A DNA stretch of 64,000 nucleotides, taken from contig JAAVIA010000052.1 of the NCBI GenBank assembly GCA_014799405.1, positions 8,131-72,130 on the forward strand. The letters run 5' to 3'. This DNA comes from Lachnospiraceae bacterium. GTDB lineage: Bacteria > Bacillota > Clostridia > Lachnospirales > Lachnospiraceae. The position numbers and the translations under genes were made by a program. Shown here in pieces: positions 2-51,574 of this stretch (positions within the stretch are counted from its first letter, which is position 1; each line of letters begins with the position of its first letter). The notes beneath the pieces are model-generated. The model had not been told where the DNA came from. It saw nothing but the letters and a program-made list of their open reading frames with translations, and did not search any database.

Positions 2-2500
2 TTTGATAAAAGTGATGGACTCACCAAGGATATAAATACTCTGTGCCATAGTACAATAGATGCAAACGGAATACTTTATATATGCTGTAACAATGGCATT
101 TGTACGTTAGATACAAGAGAAACCTGGTATAATAATGTTGCGCCAAAGATAAGGGTTACGGCTATAGATGTAGATGGGACAAGGTATGAGTATGATGATT
201 TGTCAGATGGACTTGTAGTTGACAGCAACACGACACGTATAACGGTATATTTTGCAGTATTCAGCTTCACAAACAGAAATAATATTTCCGTAGAATATTT
301 TCTTGACGGTTTTGACGAAAATCCAATTGTAATAAGCGGAAGTAATGCTATGGAGGCAGTGTACACAAATCTTGACGGAGGAACGTATCAGTTCAGGATA
401 AAGGCATATAACGGCGATGGTAAAATGTGTAACGAGGAGGTTGCGTTTCAAATTGAAAAGCAACAGAGCTTTTTTGAGAAAAGTGCATCGAGATATTTTA
501 TACTCATAACGATGCTTTTAGGAATATGCCTCATTTTTTATGCAGGTTTTAGAGTAAGAAAAATATTAATCTCAAATAGCAAGGAAATAGAAAAGCTTTC
601 TAAGGAACATGAACAGGCGGTAAAATCAAGCAGCATAAAAAATGATTACCTTGCAAATATGAGCAATGAGATAAAAATGCCTATAAATGTAATGATGGCT
701 AAAGCGGATGAATTGCTTCAGCTTCACACAGAGGATGATGAGTATAAAAAAAGTATATTAAGCATATACGAGACGGGCGGAAAAATATTAAATAAGGTTG
801 ACGATATTATTCTTCTTGCAAAGATAGAGGCAGGAAAGGTAGATGTAGTCAATGAAAAATACTCTGTGACAACAATGATTTATGAGTTGTCTGAGCTTGT
901 AATGCAAAGCATAGGCGAAAAAACCGTGAAGTTTTTTGTGGAAATAGGAGATATTCTTGCTGATAATGTTGTAGGAGATCAGGAAAAAATAAAAAATATT
1001 TTAAAAAGGATTTTGGAAAATTCCGTAAAGTATACAAAGGACGGCTCAATAACACTTTCTGTAGACTGCTATGAATATACAGACAGGTCAAATAAAAACG
1101 CTGTGAATTTTGTGTTTACCGTATCGGATACGGGAATTGGTATTCAGGAGGAGCGGCTTGAAACAATATTCGAGGTATTTCAAATAGTTGATAATAAAAA
1201 GAACAATATTCATTCAGGAAACGGGGTCGGACTTGCTATAGCAAAGGGGCTTGCTGATACAATGAATGCTGACCTGGAAGTGGAAAGTGCTTATGGCGCA
1301 GGCTCGACCTTTACCCTTTCTGTAAATCAGACCGTGGCAGACAATGGTATGGCAAACTCTGCCTCAAAGGTGGAGGAGATGGTGTCCAAGGAGGTAGCGG
1401 AAAAGCTTTGGCTTCCGGAGGTAAATGTACTGCTTGTTGAGGATGATGAGGTAAGCAGGCAGGTTGCACAGAAGGTTCTTGGTCAGTTTGACCTTAGGGT
1501 GGATGTTGCAACCTCCGCTATCGGAGCCATAGATATGGTTTTGAATAATGATTATGACGTGGTATTTATGGATTTAACGCTGCCTATTATGAGTGGTATA
1601 GATGCCATGAAGGAGATAAGGGAGCTGGATGGGAAAGAGTACAAAATTATGCCTATTGTTTCCATGGATACAGATGCGATAGGGGATAATAATGACAAGC
1701 TTTTGGAGCAGGGCTTTACTGATACACTTGTGAAGCCTATGGATGTAAGGAGAGTGGCAGCAATATTTAAGGATTGCCTTCCTGAAAGCAAGCTTAAGGA
1801 AAAAACAAACGATATTGCAAAATATATACATGATTCAAGATACAGAGATGGCTTGGAAAAGCTTGCGGCTTATGTTGATGTGGAAAATGCGATAGAGCGT
1901 ATAGGAGGAAGTATAGACGTATTTAACAGACTTGTTGTTGCATATTATAATCAGAATGAGAGTGCACCTGATGAGATTTCAAAAAAGCTTGAGAAGGATA
2001 TAAGAGGCTTTAAGACCAAAATCCATACAATAAAAACAACAAGCACAAATATTGGAGCTTTAAGCATTGCAAAGGAGGCGTCAAGGCTTGAGGCTGCCAT
2101 CAACATAGGAAATAAGGAATATGTCAGGAGAAATCTAAGGGAGTTTGCTAAAAATCTGAAGGATATCCTGCAAATCATTCAGGAATATTTGGAATTTGCA
2201 GACATGTTGACAGGGATTACGGATGAGGAATATAATCAAAAGCTTGCCGAAAATAAGTCTTTAGATGAGGCTGATGACGGCACGGATACTACATTAAACG
2301 AAGAAGCATTAGAAAGCATAAAGAAATATGCAGTTGATAATGACTTTGAACTTCTTGATGCCACAATGGAGATGATATCCACTATGGAATTTGAGGGGGA
2401 GGATAAAGAGTTTTTAGATGCGCTTGATGAGGCTGTGACCACAAGGGACAGTGATGCAATTGTGGAGCTTGTAACAACATATGTAAATTTAAAATTATAG
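2..2500 (+). CDS. Hybrid sensor histidine kinase/response regulator (Y_Y_Y, TM, HisKA-like, HATPase, REC, HPt); 5' end truncated by the window edge
   Basis: Frame is open from base 2 (FDKSDGLTKD...). Y_Y_Y-like YTNLDGGTYQFRIKA, one TM helix, N-box ENSVKY, G1 DTGIG, G2 GNGVGLAI, REC (LLVEDD, FMD, VKP), HPt-like IHTIKTTS. H-box reads MSNEIKMP, with no His. Confidence 0.9.
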   Translation, partial: FDKSDGLTKDINTLCHSTIDANGILYICCNNGICTLDTRETWYNNVAPKIRVTAIDVDGTRYEYDDLSDGLVVDSNTTRITVYFAVFSFTNRNNISVEYFLDGFDENPIVISGSNAMEAVYTNLDGGTYQFRIKAYNGDGKMCNEEVAFQIEKQQSFFEKSASRYFILITMLLGICLIFYAGFRVRKILISNSKEIEKLSKEHEQAVKSSSIKNDYLANMSNEIKMPINVMMAKADELLQLHTEDDEYKKSILSIYETGGKILNKVDDIILLAKIEAGKVDVVNEKYSVTTMIYELSELVMQSIGEKTVKFFVEIGDILADNVVGDQEKIKNILKRILENSVKYTKDGSITLSVDCYEYTDRSNKNAVNFVFTVSDTGIGIQEERLETIFEVFQIVDNKKNNIHSGNGVGLAIAKGLADTMNADLEVESAYGAGSTFTLSVNQTVADNGMANSASKVEEMVSKEVAEKLWLPEVNVLLVEDDEVSRQVAQKVLGQFDLRVDVATSAIGAIDMVLNNDYDVVFMDLTLPIMSGIDAMKEIRELDGKEYKIMPIVSMDTDAIGDNNDKLLEQGFTDTLVKPMDVRRVAAIFKDCLPESKLKEKTNDIAKYIHDSRYRDGLEKLAAYVDVENAIERIGGSIDVFNRLVVAYYNQNESAPDEISKKLEKDIRGFKTKIHTIKTTSTNIGALSIAKEASRLEAAINIGNKEYVRRNLREFAKNLKDILQIIQEYLEFADMLTGITDEEYNQKLAENKSLDEADDGTDTTLNEEALESIKKYAVDNDFELLDATMEMISTMEFEGEDKEFLDALDEAVTTRDSDAIVELVTTYVNLKL

Positions 2501-2895
2501 AATGAGGCTGTCGTACCAAAATCTGAGTGTATGGCTCGCCTGTGGTTGTCACATGCTGCTATATACACATAAAACATGCTTTCGCTCGTCTCCGACGTAA
2601 CGGTACTAAGAGTTTGGGTTTCGATGCATAGCTACATGGCACATAAAAATCGTTTGAAGACGTGGGTACTTAAATTGCCGGTTCAAGATTCCTTTATATA
2701 GAGATATCTTAAACCGGCAATTTTTAGTACCGTTACGTCGGAGACGAGCGAAAGCGTGTTTTTATGTGCCATGTAGCTATGCATCGAAATCCAAACTCAA
2801 GTACCGACGTCTTCAAACGGTTTTTATGTGTATATAGCAGCATGTGACAGCCGCAGACAAGCCATATCAAATCTGAGTGCGACAGCCTCATTTTT
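2501..2895. repeat. Modular long imperfect palindrome (REP/REPIN-like) between convergent genes, with permuted internal blocks; probably also a terminator
   Basis: Inverted block pairs: 2501-2516/2877-2892 (15/16), 2547-2574/2822-2849 (28/28), 2574-2608/2725-2759 (34/35), 2610-2649/2759-2798 (39/40), 2651-2670/2800-2819 (19/20), 2672-2689/2706-2723 (17/18). T-run at 2891-2895. Confidence 0.9.
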
Positions 2896-3991
2896 AACTA
2901 TAAATTTTTATGAGGTTCTCAAGCTTCGAGGTTGCATTTATCATCATAAGGTCAAGTAATGTAATTGCGCACATTGATTCAACTATCACAACGGCACGTG
3001 GACCGATGATTGGGTCATGACGTCCTTTTATCTCAATTTCCGTTTCCTCATGTGATGAAGTTATTGTCTGTTGCTTTTTATATATGGACGGAGTGGGTTT
3101 AAAGGAAGCCCTTACAAGAATATCGCTGCCATCGCTTATGCCGCCTAATGTACCGCCTGAATGATTTGTAGCCTTAATCGGATTTCCATTTTCTATTCTA
3201 AAAGCATCGTTATTTTCTGAACCCTTGGCACGTTGAACAAGGATGCCGTCGCCCACTTCAACTGCTTTTACGGCACCGATGGACATTATGGCTTTCCCAA
3301 GGCTTGCATCCAGCTTGTCAAATACAGGCTCGCCTATGCCTGCGGGAACACCGCTTATTATACATTCAACTGATGAGCCAATAGAATCCTTGTCTGCCAT
3401 GACTTCTTTTAGAAGTGCCGTTGCAGCCTCCGCAGCAGCAGAATCAGGCATATAGTGTGGATTGTTAAATATTTCTTTTTTTTGAAAATTGGAATAATCA
3501 ATTACAATATCCCCTATTGAGCGTGTATATGATAAGAGATTAATGCCAAGTGTACTTAAAATCTTTGAGGCAATTGCCCCTGCGGCAACCCTTCCTACGG
3601 TTTCACGAGCTGAGGAACGCCCGCCACCTCTGTAATCTCTGAAACCGAATTTTTCATCAAATCCAAAATCTGCATGTCCAGGTCTGTAGCAGTATGCAAT
3701 ATTTCCGTAATCCTTAGATTTTTGATCCTCATTGTAAACAATAAGGGAAATAGGGGTGCCTGTTGTTTTTCCGTCAAAAACGCCTGATAAAATCTGAACC
3801 GTGTCCGATTCGTTTCGCTTTGTTGAAAAATCGCTCTGTCCCGGCTTTCTTCTGTTTAAAAATACCTGAATATCATCTTCAGAAAGAGGTACATTTGACG
3901 GACATCCGTCAACAACTACACCAAGAGCCTGACCATGAGATTCACCCCATGTACTAATTTTAAAAATGTTACCATATATAGAACCTGCCAT
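2894..3991 (-). CDS. aroC: Chorismate synthase
   Basis: [21 protein letters not shown] and GRHDP motifs. Confidence 0.98.
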
Positions 3992-5072: not shown

Positions 5073-5795
5073 ATGTTAAATTTACGTTTTAAATATGTTG
5101 TTGCTTCAAGCGGATTATTTGTCCTGTGGGCAGTCCCAAAGGCTAATAAAATGATTAGGGAGAAGGAAAAATATAGTCTCAAGGTTCGCTATGAGCATGC
5201 CAAATGTATAATGAATCATATGCGGAAAAGGGCACGCACAACAACAGTAGTTACAGGAAAAGAAAATATTCCTTCTGATGGCGGATGTATTTTTTATTCA
5301 AATCATCAGGGAAAGTACGATGCGTTAGGAATTTTACTTGCATTGGATAAGCCGTGCGGAATGCTTTTCGGAAAGGTACAGGCAAGCAGACTTTTAAGCA
5401 GGCAGGTTGTAGGTCTTGTTGAAGGCGTTGTAATAGACCTTACGGATCCCAGAGATGAGGTGAAAGCTATCAGGAAGGTTACGGAAGAAGTGGGAAAAGG
5501 TCGTTATTTTCTTATTTTTCCCGAAGGCGGTTACACAGATAACAAAAATAAGCTTCAGGAATTTCATACCGGCTGTTTTAGCTGTACATTAAAGACTAAA
5601 ACACCTGTTGTGCCTGTTTGCATTTATGATTCGTATAAATCCATGAACAGTAATACCTTTGAGAAGGTCGAAACACAGGTGCATTTTTTAAAGCCGATAT
5701 ATTATGATGAATATAATGGTATGAAAAAGCCTCAGCTTGCACAGCTTGTCAAGGACAGGATACAGGAAAAGCTGGATGAAATTGAGGGAGTATAA
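5073..5795 (+). CDS. plsC: 1-acyl-sn-glycerol-3-phosphate acyltransferase
   Basis: NHQGKYD (HX4D) and FPEG motifs. Confidence 0.85.
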   Translation: MLNLRFKYVVASSGLFVLWAVPKANKMIREKEKYSLKVRYEHAKCIMNHMRKRARTTTVVTGKENIPSDGGCIFYSNHQGKYDALGILLALDKPCGMLFGKVQASRLLSRQVVGLVEGVVIDLTDPRDEVKAIRKVTEEVGKGRYFLIFPEGGYTDNKNKLQEFHTGCFSCTLKTKTPVVPVCIYDSYKSMNSNTFEKVETQVHFLKPIYYDEYNGMKKPQLAQLVKDRIQEKLDEIEGV

Positions 5796-5935
5796 TGTTA
5801 CATGTTTTATATCATATATTTTACATGGTATAAGTTGTGAAAGCATGTTATAATATGCCCTAAAGAGGGATCAAACGAAGTTGGGAGGATTCCTTAGGGC
5901 AAGACCTAAGACCTATCGGAATGAGGAGGAGCATA

Positions 5936-7915
5936 ATGAGTCAGCTGGTTTATACAAATGCAAAATGTCAGGGATGTAATCGTTGCATTTCGGTATGTCC
6001 AGTGCTTACTGCAAACTATTCTGTCCGTACAGAAGTTGGACAGCGGATAGAGGTACATAGCGAAAATTGTGTTGCTTGTGGTGCCTGCTTTGATGTTTGC
6101 GAGCATAATGCCAGAGAATATTATGATGACACGGAACAGTTTTTTCGTGATTTAGAACGTGGCGAACAGATATCTGTGCTGCTGGCTCCGTCATTTCAGG
6201 CCAATTATCCAGAGGAATATGCCTCTATATTGGGCGGACTGAAGGATTTAGGCATCAATCGTATTATAAGTGTAAGCTTCGGTGCTGACATTACCACATG
6301 GGGATATATCAATTATATTTCAGAGAATGATTTACAAGGAGGGATTTCACAGCCTTGTCCGGCAGTTGTTAATTACATTGAGCATTATGCACCGGATTTG
6401 ATACAGAAGCTGATTCCGGTTCATAGTCCTTTACTGTGTACGGCGATTTATGCAAAAAAATATATGCATATAACGGATAAGCTGGCATTTATCAGTCCAT
6501 GTATTGCAAAAAAGATTGAGATTACGGACCCAAATACGAATGGCTATGTATCATATAATCTGACCTTCAATCATTTCATGGAGTATGTAAGAAAGCATCA
6601 TATCATTGGAAAAGATGCATCCGATGAGATAGAATATGGTTTGGGAGCTGTTTATCCAACCCCGGGAGGACTTAAGGAGAATGTCTATTGGTTTTGTGGA
6701 GAAGATGCATTTATACGACAGGTAGAGGGAGAAAAACGTGCATATGCCTTTTTAGAGGATTACAGGAAGAGACTTGCCAGAGGGCAGAGATTACCATTTA
6801 TGGTTGATATTCTAAACTGCGACAGAGGTTGCCTTTACGGAACAGGTATTGAAACGGAAAAAAATTATTCTGAGGAAAATTATTATAATCTGCAGGAAAT
6901 CAGAGAACGCTGTAAGAAAAACAGTGAAGAAAATCCATTTTCAAAAAAGCTTACTCCAGTGGAACGTTTAGAACAATTTAACAGGCAGTTTTCCGAATTG
7001 GATATTCGGGATTTTATGCGGAACTATTCTGATAAATCCACCAGTATTTCTTTGCGTGAGCCAAGTGAGAAAGACTTGGAGGATATATTTATTTCCATGA
7101 ATAAAAAAAGTTGGGCACAAAGGAATATTAACTGTGGAGCATGTGGATATGGAAACTGTCTGGAAATGGCAGCGGCAATTTACAATGGCAGTAATATACC
7201 GGAAAATTGTGTTCACTATATGAAGGATGAGCTTCATGCATTTTCTGTCAGGATGAAAAAACAAAATGAGGAATTAAAGCGTGCGATTCAGGAGGAAAAG
7301 GAAGGCGAGCTGTTCATTAATCAGATTATACGTGCGTTTGCAAAAAGTATTGACCTTAAGGACCAGTATACAAAGGGACATTCCTTCCGTGTGGCAGAGT
7401 ATGCAAGGTTGATTGCAACGAGGATGGGATATAATGATAAAAAGCTTGAAAATATTTATCATATTGCCCTGCTCCATGATATTGGTAAGGTTGTAATACC
7501 GGAAGAGATTTTAAATAAGCCGGGGAAGCTCACAGATGGTGAGTATGAAATGATTAAGCTACACGCACAATATGGTTATGATATTTTAAAGGAAATTGAC
7601 AGCCTTCCGAATCTGGCACTTGGTGCGGGATATCATCATGAGCGCGTAGATGGAAAGGGATATCCGAACGGAAAGCAGGAAAAAGAAATTCCGCAGATTG
7701 CCAGAATTATTGCAGTTGCAGATACATTTGATGCCATGCATTCCACCCGTCCATACAGGAAATGTATGCCAATGGAACATATTATTAATGAATTGAAACG
7801 GGTTTCGGGAACCCAGTTAGATGCCCATATTGTGGATATTCTTTTGGAGCTTATTGATGAGGGCGCTTTTGAGGATGATATTCAGGGACAATATGCAGTT
7901 GAAATGGATAAGTAA
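5936..7915 (+). CDS. Sensory-type [FeFe]-hydrogenase-like/Fe-S protein fused to an HD-GYP cyclic-dinucleotide phosphodiesterase
   Basis: 2x[4Fe-4S] ferredoxin (CQGCNRCISVCP, CVACGACFDVC). H-cluster-like motifs SQPCP, SPCIAKKIE, DILNCDRGCLYG. FeS domain CGACGYGNC...C. HD-GYP motifs HSFRV, LHDIGK, HHERVDGKGYP, ADTFDAM, RPYR. Start ATG 5936 follows GAGGAGG. Confidence 0.88.
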   Translation: MSQLVYTNAKCQGCNRCISVCPVLTANYSVRTEVGQRIEVHSENCVACGACFDVCEHNAREYYDDTEQFFRDLERGEQISVLLAPSFQANYPEEYASILGGLKDLGINRIISVSFGADITTWGYINYISENDLQGGISQPCPAVVNYIEHYAPDLIQKLIPVHSPLLCTAIYAKKYMHITDKLAFISPCIAKKIEITDPNTNGYVSYNLTFNHFMEYVRKHHIIGKDASDEIEYGLGAVYPTPGGLKENVYWFCGEDAFIRQVEGEKRAYAFLEDYRKRLARGQRLPFMVDILNCDRGCLYGTGIETEKNYSEENYYNLQEIRERCKKNSEENPFSKKLTPVERLEQFNRQFSELDIRDFMRNYSDKSTSISLREPSEKDLEDIFISMNKKSWAQRNINCGACGYGNCLEMAAAIYNGSNIPENCVHYMKDELHAFSVRMKKQNEELKRAIQEEKEGELFINQIIRAFAKSIDLKDQYTKGHSFRVAEYARLIATRMGYNDKKLENIYHIALLHDIGKVVIPEEILNKPGKLTDGEYEMIKLHAQYGYDILKEIDSLPNLALGAGYHHERVDGKGYPNGKQEKEIPQIARIIAVADTFDAMHSTRPYRKCMPMEHIINELKRVSGTQLDAHIVDILLELIDEGAFEDDIQGQYAVEMDK

Positions 7916-10266: not shown

Positions 10267-10803
10267 ATGAGTGATAGTGAAAAACTTGATTTGATTTTGA
10301 CCGGAGTACTTGATTTAAATACAAGAATGTATAGGGTCGAGGAAGATTTAAAAGAGGTCAGGGAAGATGTAAAATTTTTAAAAGACAGAGTAAATAAAAT
10401 TGAGGAAGAAGTAAGACATTTAAAAGACCGAATGGGTAGAGTTGAGGCGGAAGTAAGGCTTTTAAAAGACAGAATGGATAAGGTTGAGGACGACTTAAGA
10501 GAAGTCAAAGAGGAAGTAGGAATACTGAGGGAAGACTTAAAAGAAGTCAAAGAGGAAGTAGGAATACTGAAGGGAGACTTAAAAGAGGTCAAGGAAGAAG
10601 TTACAAACACTAATCTTATAATTGAAAATGAAATTCGTGTCAACATTCAAAGAATAGCGGAAGGACATCTTGATTTGTCAAGGAACATGCATGATGTTAT
10701 AAGACCGAATAATGAGATGGAAGTGCTTGTAGTAAGAGTTGGGGTTTTAGAAACAGAGGTAAAATATATAAAAAAGAATTTACATATGAATGTTGCAAAG
10801 TAA
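10267..10803 (+). CDS. Coiled-coil hypothetical protein with heptad repeats
   Basis: (L/V)-x6 heptads such as LKEVKEEVGILREDLKEV. RBS GAAGGTG. Confidence 0.8.
   Translation: MSDSEKLDLILTGVLDLNTRMYRVEEDLKEVREDVKFLKDRVNKIEEEVRHLKDRMGRVEAEVRLLKDRMDKVEDDLREVKEEVGILREDLKEVKEEVGILKGDLKEVKEEVTNTNLIIENEIRVNIQRIAEGHLDLSRNMHDVIRPNNEMEVLVVRVGVLETEVKYIKKNLHMNVAK
10492..10601 (+). repeat. 42-bp in-frame tandem repeat (about 2.6 copies)
   Basis: GACTTAA(G/A)AGA(A/G)GTCAA starts at 10492, 10534 and 10576. Confidence 0.85.
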
Positions 10804-32459: not shown

Positions 32460-33347
32460 ATGGCAATTTTTACGGGTGCAGGTGTTGCAATTGTGACACC
32501 ATTTAATGAGGATGGTTCAGTAGATTACGATTCATTTAGGAAACTTATTGAGTTTCAGGTTGAAAATGGTACTGATTGTATTATTGTATGCGGAACGACA
32601 GGGGAGGCATCAACACTTACACATGAAGAACATCTTGAATGTATCAGATTTTGTGTGGAGGTAGTAAACAAGCGGATACCTGTGGTGGCAGGAACCGGCT
32701 CAAACTGTACCGAAACCGCAATATATCTCTCCAAGGAGGCAGAAAAATATGGCGCCGACGGACTTTTGCTTGTGACCCCTTACTACAACAAAGCAACACA
32801 AAAGGGGCTTATTGCACATTTTACGGCTATTGCAGACAGTGTTTCAATTCCGATAATTCTGTATAATGTACCAAGCAGGACAGGAGTAAATATTTTACCT
32901 GAAACAGCAGTTGCACTTGCAAAGAATGTTGAAAATATCGTGGCTATAAAGGAAGCATCGGGAAACATTTCCCAGATAGCAAAGCTTGCTGCGTTGGCAG
33001 ACGGATGTATAGATATTTATTCGGGAAATGATGATCAGGTTATACCGATTCTTTCTCTTGGAGGAAAGGGTGTCATATCTGTTCTTTCAAATGTTGCACC
33101 AAGGGAAACTCATGATATGGTTGCAAAATATCTTGAGGGTGATGTGAAAGGGGCTTTGGATATACAGCTTAAGGCAATCTCTCTTTGTGACGCACTATTC
33201 TGTGAGGTAAATCCTATTCCTGTTAAAAAGGGTGTTGCACTTATGGGATATTGTAATGGAAAGCTCAGAATGCCGCTTACGGATATTGAGGAGGCAAATG
33301 AGGCTAAGCTTACAAGGGCAATGAAAGATTTTGGAATAAAGCTTTAG
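32460..33347 (+). CDS. dapA: 4-hydroxy-tetrahydrodipicolinate synthase
   Basis: GTTGE, PYYNK, LYNVPSRT, IKEASG. Confidence 0.98.
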   Translation: MAIFTGAGVAIVTPFNEDGSVDYDSFRKLIEFQVENGTDCIIVCGTTGEASTLTHEEHLECIRFCVEVVNKRIPVVAGTGSNCTETAIYLSKEAEKYGADGLLLVTPYYNKATQKGLIAHFTAIADSVSIPIILYNVPSRTGVNILPETAVALAKNVENIVAIKEASGNISQIAKLAALADGCIDIYSGNDDQVIPILSLGGKGVISVLSNVAPRETHDMVAKYLEGDVKGALDIQLKAISLCDALFCEVNPIPVKKGVALMGYCNGKLRMPLTDIEEANEAKLTRAMKDFGIKL

Positions 33348-47406: not shown

Positions 47407-47769
47407 TTATTGTTTTGCTGAATTCTTATATCGCTCAGCATACTCATCGAAAAGGTGATGATACATGGATGGAAGCCCCACAAATTCACATCCGTATCTA
47501 TATCCTGCTTCACCGATTGGTGTTTCATAGAGGATTTTGACAACTGACAAAATAATCTCGTCAGTGCCAACAAATTCAATTGTGGCATTAAAATAGTAAT
47601 CAACAGGAAGCTTGCTGGCAGACATAAAACCGATACCTGCCTTTGAAATATCAAAAACCTCAATCTCTGCATTTAAGGCATCTATGTTTATTCCATCCTG
47701 CTTAAAAAGGTTTGAAACCTCAAGCTTAAGTTTAATTGGTAATCGTTCGTATTTTCTTTTCTCTTGCAT
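47407..47769 (-). CDS. Stand-alone PilZ-domain protein
   Basis: KRKYER (RxxxR) and DISKAG (DxSxxG) c-di-GMP motifs. Start after GGAGG. Confidence 0.88.
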   Translation of the reverse strand: MQEKRKYERLPIKLKLEVSNLFKQDGINIDALNAEIEVFDISKAGIGFMSASKLPVDYYFNATIEFVGTDEIILSVVKILYETPIGEAGYRYGCEFVGLPSMYHHLFDEYAERYKNSAKQ

Positions 47770-48027
47770 AAAAAAATCCTCCGAATACATTTATATAGTG
47801 TGTTGTGCACATTATACCAAAAAATTATATATATTTCCATATTTTTTTTCATATGTCATAATATAAGATTTGAATATGAAAATCTTGGCAAGATATGCTA
47901 CAAAAATAGCATAAAATATTTGACAGTTTAATCCATCTAAGGCATAATTTACATTGTTGCAGATACTGCCGTGAAGGCTGTTAAGTGCACATAGTTTTTT
48001 AGACAAAATAATGGAAGGATGTATGTT

Positions 48028-49585: not shown

Positions 49586-51574
49586 ATGGGCAAAGGAAAA
49601 AAGATGGGTGTACGCTTCAAGCTTATCAGCTTGATAATTCCGATATTCATTATTATGGTTTTTGCTTTTTTCGTACTTTGCAGAGGCGTTATTTTGAAAC
49701 TTGCAACAGATAGGTTTGAAACGGAATCTGAGGTTTATGCTGAAAAAATCAGTGCGTGGACGGGACAGATTTTCAGTGAGCTGAATGTATATAAAAATAC
49801 AATAGACGAGGCGGGCTTTAGGGATGATGCTGCTATACTTACATATATGGAAACCTCCTGTGATAAAAATCCTGCTTACCCTGTAGGTCTTTATATGGGT
49901 GATGACTCGGGTATATATCTTGATGGTTCAGGATGGGTACCGGATGATGATTGGGTGCTTACGGAGCGTGATTGGTATATTGAGGGTGTAGAAAATGAAG
50001 AATTTGCATTTGGCGAGCCATATTATGATTCACAGACAGGAGATGTTTGTGTGAGTGCAACCGTGCGTATGGATTACGATGCGGCAGTCAGGGTTCTCGC
50101 TGTGGATGTTTATTTGAATTATCTTTCCGAGCTTGCAACGGAGATTACGGAAGGCAGCATTGAAAATGCATTCTTTGTGACAAAGACGACAAAGACGATA
50201 CTTGCTCATCCTGACAGCAGCATGGTGGATGTAAAACTTGACGATGCAGGTCTTGATAAGCTTTATGGCAATATAAACAAAGCAATCAGTGACGGAAAGA
50301 CAAAGCTTTTGTTGCTTGAGGGTAAGGACGGAAAATATTATGTTTCTATAAACGGAATTGGAAATACAGACTGGTATCTTGTTACATGTATGAAACGCTC
50401 CGATGTTTTGAAAGATCTTACCCATGTTGAGATTATTATGACTATTATAGCCGTCATTGCAGCGTTTGTACTTATATTTGTTATAATCAGAATCGTAAAT
50501 GGTATTGTAAAGCCTGTTGAAAATGTAACAAATGTATTGAAGAATGTGGCTGCGGGTGATTTCTCACATGACATTGATGTTAAGGGGAATGATGAAATTG
50601 CAAATATGAGCCGCAATATGCAGAATTTCCTGACAAATATGCGTACTACGATATCTGACATTTCACACACAGCTGACTGGCTCAATAAGCAGTCTGAGAG
50701 AAATGGTCGCGTGTCTGAAGAATTGGCTGATTCGTCAATGCATCAGAGCAATGCTGTAGATACGCTCAATGAAATGGTGGATTCGCTTTCAAAGGCTGCG
50801 GAGGATGTTTCCGTACATATGTCTGAGCTTACAAATGTTATTTTAACTGCAAAGACAGAGTGCGAGCGTGCAGGAGATATTATGCTTCAAACGGTTGACG
50901 CCTCTGAGGGTGGAAAGGGCGACATGCGGAAGGTAAGTATCGGAATGTACAACATAGAAAATACAATAGGCAACCTTGCCAGTCAGATAAAAAGGGCAGG
51001 AGAGGTTACATCAAATATCAGCAATATGGTAACACTTATTACTGATATTGCAGATGAGACAAATCTCCTTTCTCTTAATGCGTCTATTGAGGCTGCACGT
51101 GCAGGAGAAGCAGGCCGAGGCTTTGCGGTTGTTGCGGAGCAGATAAGCAATCTGGCAGAGAACAGTAAAAATGCGGCGGAGGACATTGCAAGGCTTACGG
51201 AAGAAATTAGCCTTACTATGCAGGAAGCAGAGGGTCAGATGGAACAGAGTGTGTACGAAGTAAAGGAAAATGCAATTGTTGTCACACAGACTACTGAAAC
51301 CTTTGATATTGTATATGAAAAGGTAGCTGAAACAAACAAAAAAATTAAGTATTTGGTTGAGCTTATGGAAATGGTAGACAAGGTTGCATTTGATATGCAG
51401 GAAACTGCAAAAGAGCAGGTTGAGGCAACGGAGCAGATATCTGAATCAGCAAAGGAGCTTGGAGATTACACTCAGACGGTAAGTGCAAATAGTGATACGG
51501 CAGCGGAAAATGCAAGAGTACTTGAGACGGAATCAAAGAATCTTATAAACCGTATGGGACAGTTTAGAGTATAA
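49586..51574 (+). CDS. Methyl-accepting chemotaxis protein (dCache, HAMP, MA)
   Basis: Two TMs, dCache (TERDWY, PYYD), HAMP, signalling tip [30 protein letters not shown]. Confidence 0.96.

Follow-up and report, generated by a model that had tools for sequence, protein, structure and literature searches.

The gene studied here, P0001, occupies positions 5936 to 7915 on the forward strand of a 64,000-nucleotide stretch of DNA from an uncultured gut Lachnospiraceae bacterium (GenBank assembly GCA_014799405.1, contig JAAVIA010000052.1, positions 8,131 to 72,130), which we call the window. Judged from its sequence, the product of P0001 is a cytoplasmic one-component signalling enzyme in which a [FeFe]-hydrogenase module of the sensory type carries an HD-GYP domain as its output. 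This architecture is a rare, undescribed output variant of a catalogued sensor class. It is very probable, in our assessment, that P0001 is a cyclic-dinucleotide phosphodiesterase regulated by the state of its metal clusters. More tentatively, and with slightly more doubt than confidence, we propose that P0001 senses H2 at a complete H-cluster and thereby gates the hydrolysis of cyclic di-GMP (c-di-GMP). A preliminary description of this DNA had suggested, in similarly guarded terms, a one-component system coupling H2 or redox state to second-messenger breakdown, with an output outside the named group C subtypes, and this reading fits the evidence presented below.

A hydrogenase-like sensor module joined to an HD-GYP domain

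The reading frame of P0001 is unbroken from ATG 5936 to the stop codon ending at 7915 and encodes 659 residues. Pfam finds all of the modules that the preliminary description had listed, namely the 2x[4Fe-4S] ferredoxin, the H-domain, the CxxCxxxxC...C domain and HD-GYP. These modules and the motifs within them are positioned as follows.

5936..7915, + strand: whole gene, encoding the predicted 659-residue soluble sensor-phosphodiesterase P0001 (translation, Pfam)
5948..6115, + strand: N-terminal 2x[4Fe-4S] ferredoxin domain, residues 5-60 (Pfam Fer4_10, Fer4_7 and Fer4 matches)
6170..6841, + strand: [FeFe]-hydrogenase H-domain Fe_hyd_lg_C, residues 79-302 (Pfam E 3.9e-28)
6338..6361, + strand: L1 motif GGISQPCP, aligning to TSCCP; relay Cys replaced by Pro140, cubane ligand Cys141 kept
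6488..6520, + strand: L2 motif FISPCIAKKIE, compared with MPCxxKxxE; Met replaced by Ser187, ligand Cys189 and Lys192 kept
6800..6847, + strand: L3 motif MVDILNCDRGCLYGTG, compared with ExMxCxxGCxxGGG; Met replaced by Leu293, Cys295 and bridging Cys299 kept
7127..7213, + strand: C-terminal Fe-S domain Cx2Cx4Cx16C, Cys 400, 403, 408 and 425 (PF04060 match)
7211..7360, + strand: signalling helix, residues 426-475, one helix in the AlphaFold model, from the Fe-S domain to HD-GYP
7337..7831, + strand: HD-GYP phosphodiesterase domain, residues 468-632 (Pfam HD_5 E 1.4e-36)

The sensor half is composed of three Fe-S modules. The ferredoxin domain contributes Cys 11, 14, 17 and 21 and Cys 45, 48, 51 and 55, and none of the eight varies among 56 aligned relatives. 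The Fe_hyd_lg_C match to the central H-domain spans model positions 3-244 of 245. When compared with solved structures, the N-terminal part of P0001 matches T. maritima HydA and CbA5H best, and also CpI. An AlphaFold model of P0001 (56 sequences) has a mean predicted local distance difference test score of 73, rising to 80-90 across most of the H-domain, and a Foldseek search with this model placed [FeFe]-hydrogenases at the top (E ~1e-11, ~445 aligned columns) and also returned the HD-GYP enzyme PmGH. The last module, matched by PF04060 'FeS' at residues 398-426 (E 4.7e-8), carries four Cys that are invariant among the same 56 relatives, and sensory hydrogenases of groups C and D are known to have the same Cx2Cx4Cx16C motif (PMC8163306).

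The H-domain motifs were placed by HMMER alignment to solved enzymes and by BLAST to the host's own canonical hydrogenase. The four H-cluster Cys and the Lys named in the preliminary description are confirmed as Cys141, Cys189, Cys295, Cys299 and Lys192, with Lys192 aligning as the equivalent of the cyanide-binding Lys. All 16 cluster Cys of P0001, together with Lys192, are invariant in the alignment of 56 relatives. The substitutions reported in the preliminary description are also borne out by alignment to TSCCP, MPCxxKxxE and ExMxCxxGCxxGGG, where Pro140 stands at the relay Cys and Ser187 and Leu293 stand at the two Met positions; the P0001 counterpart of ExMxCxxGCxxGGG is DILNCDRGCLYGTG. 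The relay Cys corresponds to CpI C299, with the sites mapped to CpI numbering by eye. The L1 motif GGISQPCP is near-invariant among relatives with HD-GYP and with MCP (methyl-accepting chemotaxis protein) outputs alike. Two further residues, Tyr124 and Tyr127, occupy the places of two canonical proton-pathway Glu (MEEATE in canonical enzymes). With Pro at the relay position and Tyr at the Glu positions, the proton pathway is missing from P0001 in the alignment. The stretches that line the [2Fe] pocket of CpI, APS, FGAD, SP and GG(L)xE, are preserved.

The linker that the preliminary description had read as a short coiled coil is one continuous helix in the AlphaFold model, and the HD-GYP domain follows from it. 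Among solved structures this domain matches V-cGAP3 (5z7c, E 2.9e-42) and PmGH (4mcw, E 8.4e-37), and its catalytic residues align to those of both enzymes. The 39 orthologues show no variation at His482, His513-Asp514, His543, His567-His568-Glu569, Asp572, Gly575-Tyr576-Pro577 or Asp596. The alignment retains seven of the eight PmGH metal ligands; at the position of the third-metal Glu, P0001 has Tyr478, as does V-cGAP3. This Glu, E185 in PmGH, belongs to the trinuclear site of that enzyme. A binuclear metal site is therefore expected in P0001. With this set of residues intact, the HD-GYP domain is predicted to be catalytically complete.

No transmembrane segment was found in P0001 (maximum Kyte-Doolittle 19-residue mean, 1.18), and a membrane protein is ruled out by the lack of a hydrophobic segment.

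Origin of the fusion and other outputs of the sensor module

A search of 5.8 billion proteins separated the relatives of P0001 into two tiers. The first tier holds 39 clusters at 90% identity, all with the same architecture and 64-89% identical to P0001, one of them a 571-residue fragment. These orthologues all come from Lachnospiraceae-type metagenome-assembled genomes (MAGs) and are named merely 'HD domain-containing protein'. The second tier consists of hundreds of ~640-residue proteins that are 60-72% identical across the first 70% of P0001 and end in MCP. The host genome itself encodes a paralogue with an MCP output that shares 59% identity with residues 4-430 of P0001, and the resemblance breaks off near residues 430-456, just past the Fe-S domain. 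The MCP-linked proteins belong with a catalogued type. HydDB divides [FeFe] group C into C1, histidine kinase-linked, C2, chemotactic, and C3, phosphatase-linked, all of them putative (PMC5037454), in agreement with the kinase, chemotaxis and phosphatase partners named in the preliminary description.

In a maximum-likelihood tree of the sensor module, the 39 HD-GYP-linked sequences form one clade (99 in the SH-aLRT, the Shimodaira–Hasegawa-like approximate likelihood ratio test) nested among 80 MCP-linked sequences. This nesting fits a single output swap, and several independent origins of the fusion were rejected because the tree needs one change only. The HD-GYP half alone is 58-73% identical to the C-termini of ~980-1050-residue Reg_prop/Y_Y_Y propeller proteins with a transmembrane (TM) helix, and this similarity starts between residues 436 and 451 (LFINQIIRAF at 459-468). 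P0001 probably received its output module from this propeller-TM-HD-GYP family, whose HD-GYP domains are normally controlled via an N-terminal helix from a membrane sensor. Recent derivation from a resident paralogue was ruled out, as the best of the nine other HD-GYP proteins of the host is 47% identical, against 58-73% for the propeller family. The recombination junction maps to about residues 446-450, inside the helix that links the two halves, and P0001 is best read as a chimera in which two signalling families of Lachnospiraceae meet at this point. The helix with the junction is conserved across P0001 and its 38 orthologues.

The fusion is rare. We sampled the family with 401 genomes, about one per genus, and two have a full-length match to P0001, the host and a second genome, G100, whose protein is 87% identical; the other species of the host's genus has the MCP-type protein only. 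Among 185,579 species genomes, 21 give a match of 72-95% identity that spans at least residues 1-646 of P0001. These 21 species are without exception uncultured MAGs, many of them from animal guts as judged by isolate names. The best 150 matches among 50%-identity cluster representatives (15 billion proteins) contain one cluster for the P0001 clade plus a much more diverged protein, P0248. This separate fusion lineage (706 residues, 37% identical) keeps the module order, with L1 SSSCYP, L2 GSC and HD changed to HN, and is probably a relative with impaired catalysis or with a receptor role.

Other outputs on the sensor module are more frequent. In 57 representatives we counted histidine kinase (HK) in 20, MCP in 18, GGDEF in 14 and EAL in 6, and fusions of the module to HK, to HK with response regulator (RR) and Hpt, to MCP-RR and to GGDEF-EAL were confirmed in family genomes. 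The partners are signalling outputs only. Since the same module drives MCP, histidine kinase and GGDEF-EAL outputs, it is a modular input domain. Outputs concerned with c-di-GMP are common on this module in the GGDEF-EAL form and rare in the HD-GYP form, so the link to c-di-GMP is not unique to P0001. The preliminary description knew of no characterised output of this kind. That holds for the HD-GYP form, which is unnamed; the concept is less unique, as GGDEF-EAL fusions are common on the same module.

Cofactor, signal and substrate

The host assembly (2.8 Mb, 61 contigs) is 98.6% complete. No hydE, hydF or hydG lies within the window, as the preliminary description had stated, and a check of the whole genome found all three: hydE is on the same contig as P0001, 3.3 kb past the window, and hydG and hydF are together on another contig. 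Their scores (hydE 556 bits, hydG 942, hydF 566) are all well over the curated cut-offs. Three H-domain proteins are encoded, a canonical hydrogenase of 510 residues, the MCP-linked sensor and P0001; the canonical enzyme is group-B-type, with TSCCPAW, GPCAAKKLE and GMACPGGC. The host also has a large c-di-GMP network, with 19 GGDEF and 10 HD_5 (HD-GYP) matches. Together, the maturases, the canonical hydrogenase, the MCP paralogue and the GGDEF and HD-GYP counts make H2- or redox-gated hydrolysis of c-di-GMP plausible.

On host contig C34 (L016), the canonical hydrogenase gene (790-2322) is followed after 52 nucleotides by a gene for a large sensory protein (2375-3703), with GGDEF at C34:4074-4529. 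The canonical hydrogenase beside a GGDEF protein is a possible second link between hydrogen metabolism and c-di-GMP in this host.

In the mechanism that we propose, the sensor module would be loaded with four [4Fe-4S] clusters, and HydE, HydF and HydG of the host would load the [2Fe] subcluster. H2 would then bind the H-cluster and, with turnover expected to be slow because the proton pathway is missing, shift the redox and conformational state of the module. This change would be relayed, first by the C-terminal Fe-S domain and then by the helix, as far as the HD-GYP domain, which is probably dimeric. The altered rate of c-di-GMP hydrolysis may in turn shift motility or attachment behaviour.

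The step of this scheme that depends most on the cofactor has a direct rival. The H-domain may hold its cubane only, as in Nar1-type proteins, with H2 not a ligand; the cubane and the three other clusters would then inform the HD-GYP domain of how reduced the ferredoxin pool is, or of O2 or NO damage. We regard this as possible, and as a real contender that falls short of likely. Two features of P0001 already described are in keeping with it. The proton pathway is absent, and the four conserved H-domain Cys all bind the cubane, so that their conservation is expected with or without [2Fe]. On the other hand, Lys192 and two motifs of the pocket, GG(L)xE and APS, have no obvious use if [2Fe] is lacking, and TmHydS and TamHydS, the sole sensory types tested, bind the H-cluster (PMC8163306).

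The distribution of maturases bears on the same choice. We asked whether genomes with the sensor module always carry maturases, using 80 sensor-bearing family genomes, 65 of them at least 90% complete. HydG is present in 42 of the 80, and in 35 of the 65 more complete ones. HydE is absent from 30 of the 38 HydG-negative genomes. With the host HydG as query, 28 of these 30 gave nothing, while both positive controls were recovered; the remaining two gave merely a 32%-identical frame interrupted by a stop codon. HydG is 80-91% conserved across Clostridia among the matches listed. HydF is absent from 29 of the 30 genomes and was found in all six HydG-positive controls. Altogether, 29 of the 80 sensor-bearing genomes lack hydE, hydF and hydG together (G084, G046, G386, G213, G161, G173, G206, G355, G295, G151, G326, G070 and 17 others), and 24 of the 29 are at least 90% complete. 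The sensor remains intact in these genomes. In four of them its cluster and pocket residues are identical to those of maturase-bearing genomes, which means that conservation does not prove [2Fe] binding, and in G161 and G295, both complete genomes, the sensor is the sole H-domain protein. These results argue that the sensor module is able to function without the [2Fe] subcluster.

Other observations from the same genomes stand against the view that the H-domain holds a cubane only. Most maturase-free genomes keep canonical-looking hydrogenases with TSCCP, PCxxK and CxxGC intact (TSCCPSW / GPCASKKLE / GMACPGGC in G084), and missing known maturases may therefore not mean a missing H-cluster. The lack of maturases is thus a puzzle that extends from the sensors to every H-domain protein of these genomes. 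The H-domain proteins of maturase-free genomes either work without the [2Fe] subcluster or are matured by another route. The host has its full set of maturases, and G100 has hydG and hydF, so that both sampled fusion genomes carry maturases. In G198 (contig C25:1088-5345, L033), hydG (1088-2497), hydF (2747-3916) and an MCP-linked sensor gene (from 3948) adjoin head to tail on one strand. The preliminary description had itself raised a Nar1-like, Fe-S-only protein as the alternative to its reading. The maturase-free genomes strengthen that alternative, and the host itself has HydEFG.

Two side observations concern these loci. The distance from hydF to the sensor gene in G198 is ~17 nucleotides, a rare direct linkage of a maturase with a C2-type sensor. 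In the maturase-free genome G151, a 606-residue group-A-like hydrogenase on contig C9 (L056) reads TSCSPGW, where the cubane Cys of TSCCP is apparently replaced by Ser.

A broader claim, that the C2-type module as such is a four-cluster Fe-S redox or oxidant sensor that merely resembles a hydrogenase and needs no [2Fe], seems to us unlikely. If true, it would explain the unchanged sensor in about one third of the sensor-bearing Lachnospiraceae genera, those without hydE, hydF and hydG. On this view P0001 would hydrolyse c-di-GMP under redox control, and the roles in H2 taxis and H2 signalling that are presumed for the whole subgroup would be wrong.

The maturase-free genomes, the identical residues of their sensors and the two complete genomes in which the sensor stands alone weigh against H2 sensing at a complete H-cluster, and they are joined by several further points. 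The C-terminal cluster of TamHydS is unresponsive to H2 (PMC13104023), which makes the route of transduction through that cluster uncertain. No biochemical study of any member of the C2-type sensor family was found in the literature searched. A comparison of orthologue loci gave no conserved neighbours of P0001 that point to a pathway. Lastly, the closest sequence match of the HD-GYP domain is V-cGAP3, an enzyme specific for cyclic GMP-AMP (cGAMP).

This last point raises the choice of substrate. The same sensor logic could act on 3'3'-cGAMP, pGpG or another cyclic oligonucleotide, as the V. cholerae enzyme V-cGAP3 is the best solved match of the domain and shares with P0001 the replacement of the third-metal Glu of PmGH, here by Tyr478. 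We consider a substrate other than c-di-GMP improbable, given the 19 GGDEF matches and 10 HD-GYP proteins of the host and the place of HD-GYP domains as the chief enzymes of c-di-GMP breakdown in clostridia (bioRxiv 10.1101/2021.11.05.467447).

We also weighed the absence of any allosteric coupling, in which the HD-GYP domain would be constitutive or would serve in binding or as a scaffold, or in which P0001 would be a slow hydrogenase of metabolism that happens to carry a domain unrelated to its task. Inactive HD-GYP domains that work through protein contacts exist (bioRxiv 10.1101/2021.11.05.467447), and the diverged P0248 has HN in place of HD. Every catalytic residue and the junction helix are conserved in P0001 and its 38 orthologues, however, the sensor module is repeatedly paired with signalling outputs only, and P0001 lacks the residues of the proton relay, on which fast turnover depends. 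A lack of coupling is accordingly very improbable, and regulation of the phosphodiesterase by the state of the metal clusters is the reading that we prefer.

Group C [FeFe]-hydrogenases are putative H2 sensors, and studies to date cover just two of them, each examined apart from its output (PMC13104023). P0001 places an enzymatic readout in one soluble polypeptide and would allow a simple test of H2 sensing. Such coupling, if it exists, would connect H2 (or the Fe-S redox state of the cell) directly to c-di-GMP, for the first time as far as the literature searched goes, and gut Lachnospiraceae, for which H2 is a central metabolite, could steer motility or attachment by H2 gradients. The many genomes that keep the sensor, and even canonical-looking hydrogenases, without maturases raise the question of what these proteins do. 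The value of P0001 is tempered by the histidine kinase and GGDEF-EAL fusions, which are commoner and offer similar test objects, and by its hosts, since all known carriers of the HD-GYP form are uncultured and the function is predicted from sequence.

Gene surroundings and comparison with known systems

Four further features of the window touch on P0001 or on the c-di-GMP and chemotaxis context of the host.

5846..5854, + strand: candidate extended -10 box, promoter-like, TGTTATAAT, ~80 nucleotides 5' of the start codon (read by eye)
5923..5929, + strand: Shine-Dalgarno GAGGAGG, 6 nucleotides 5' of ATG 5936 (seen in the sequence)
47410-47790, - strand: PilZ-like open reading frame of 127 residues, RxxxR...DxSxxG (17.7 bits; Pfam cut-off 22.5)
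49586-51574: MCP protein, dCache-HAMP-MCPsignal (domain matches)

The start codon at 5936, given in the preliminary description, is preferred to the in-frame ATG 5921 because the latter falls inside the Shine-Dalgarno sequence. A scan for consensus promoters left the TGTTATAAT box unflagged and found no good -35 box. A riboswitch in the 5' leader is ruled out, as Rfam gave no match at E up to 1 over positions 5700-6000. Over the whole window, Rfam detected only a lysine riboswitch (RF00168, 32133-32388, + strand, 107.9 bits), located 5' of the open reading frame 32460-33347, and a Clostridiales-1 small RNA (RF01699, 34114-34254, + strand, 70 bits). Public sequencing runs provided no RNA evidence for P0001; only gut metagenome and contig sets match, with 11-15% of the sequence words, a share that indicates relatives of P0001 and not the same sequence.

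The genes around P0001 in the window are housekeeping in nature (aroC, patatin, acyltransferase, rpsO, aroE-aroK and pnp), and P0001 looks monocistronic. A conserved gene neighbourhood is ruled out, since the orthologues stand in unrelated contexts. At the window start, positions 2-2500 (+ strand) encode a hybrid histidine kinase (Y_Y_Y, HisKA, HATPase_c, Response_reg), truncated by the window boundary, whose extracytoplasmic sensor is of the same type as in the family that donated the HD-GYP domain. A 178-residue protein at 10267-10803 (+ strand) matches coiled-coil families only, all below the cut-off. The preliminary description had cited an MCP and a PilZ receptor elsewhere in the window. 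The MCP is present at 49586-51574. The open reading frame at 47410-47790 is probably the PilZ receptor that was meant, and its score lies below the Pfam cut-off.

Among known systems, P0001 is closest to HydDB group C2 (Sondergaard, Pedersen and Greening 2016, PMC5037454), with which it shares the 2x[4Fe-4S] domain, the SQPCP / SPCxxKK / DxLNCxxGC H-domain and Cx2Cx4Cx16C. The sensors of C2-type MCP-linked proteins are 59-72% identical to P0001 over residues 4-430. Where C2 proteins have the MCP signalling hairpin, P0001 has HD-GYP from about residue 446, and its predicted output is hydrolysis of a second messenger and not control of CheA. Pfam gives no PF00015 (MCP) match in P0001, and this is the output by which C2 is defined. 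P0001 is therefore best described, on present alignments, as an unnamed output variant of group C whose sensor groups with C2 sequences, where C2 membership is assigned by proxy, the nearest relatives being MCP-linked proteins that fit the HydDB description.

TmHydS (group C, M2f) and TamHydS (group D, M2e) resemble P0001 in having lost the relay Cys and the proton pathway and in having two N-terminal clusters and a C-terminal Cx2Cx4Cx16C cluster. The sensory hydrogenase TamHydS, which carries a functional H-cluster, has Ser in place of Met353 and Leu in place of Met497, the same pair as Ser187 and Leu293 of P0001 (PMC8163306). Compared by motifs only, P0001 differs from both in that it lacks PAS, the hallmark of M2f, has its output enzyme fused directly and has Pro at the relay Cys.

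With PmGH, V-cGAP3 and the RpfG family, P0001 shares a complete HD, HHE and GYP signature, and a helix precedes the domain as in many multidomain HD-GYP proteins. Its input sets it apart from these enzymes. A hydrogenase-like Fe-S module is unlisted by Galperin and Chou, whose survey of domain architectures around HD-GYP mentions no hydrogenase, ferredoxin or iron-sulfur input, and we found no study of a hydrogenase module fused to HD-GYP in the literature covered, with subscription-only papers outside its scope. The Reg_prop/Y_Y_Y propeller proteins of Lachnospiraceae and Oscillospiraceae share the HD-GYP domain and the end of the preceding helix with P0001. They are membrane-bound with an extracytoplasmic sensor, whereas P0001 is predicted to be soluble with a cytoplasmic Fe-S sensor.

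Three systems are related in logic. The sensor-GGDEF-EAL fusions of other Lachnospiraceae genera (~870 residues) carry the same module, 33-55% identical over residues 3-440, with different catalytic domains, and are far commoner (GGDEF in 14 and EAL in 6 of the 57 representatives) than the one HD-GYP cluster. The [NiFe] group 2c, 'Diguanylate cyclase-linked (putative)' (PMC5037454), has been proposed to follow the same logic from H2 sensing to c-di-GMP. It belongs to an unrelated hydrogenase superfamily with no fusion described, would act through synthesis and not hydrolysis, and is equally putative. In the globin-coupled HD-GYP protein of Vibrio fluvialis (PMC10882959), a gas-binding metal domain is fused to HD-GYP and is reported to control catalysis in a gas-selective manner. 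Its sensor is a haem globin for O2, CO or NO, whereas that of P0001 is an Fe-S/H-cluster-type module. The Vibrio protein indicates that gas-binding metal domains can control HD-GYP enzymes.

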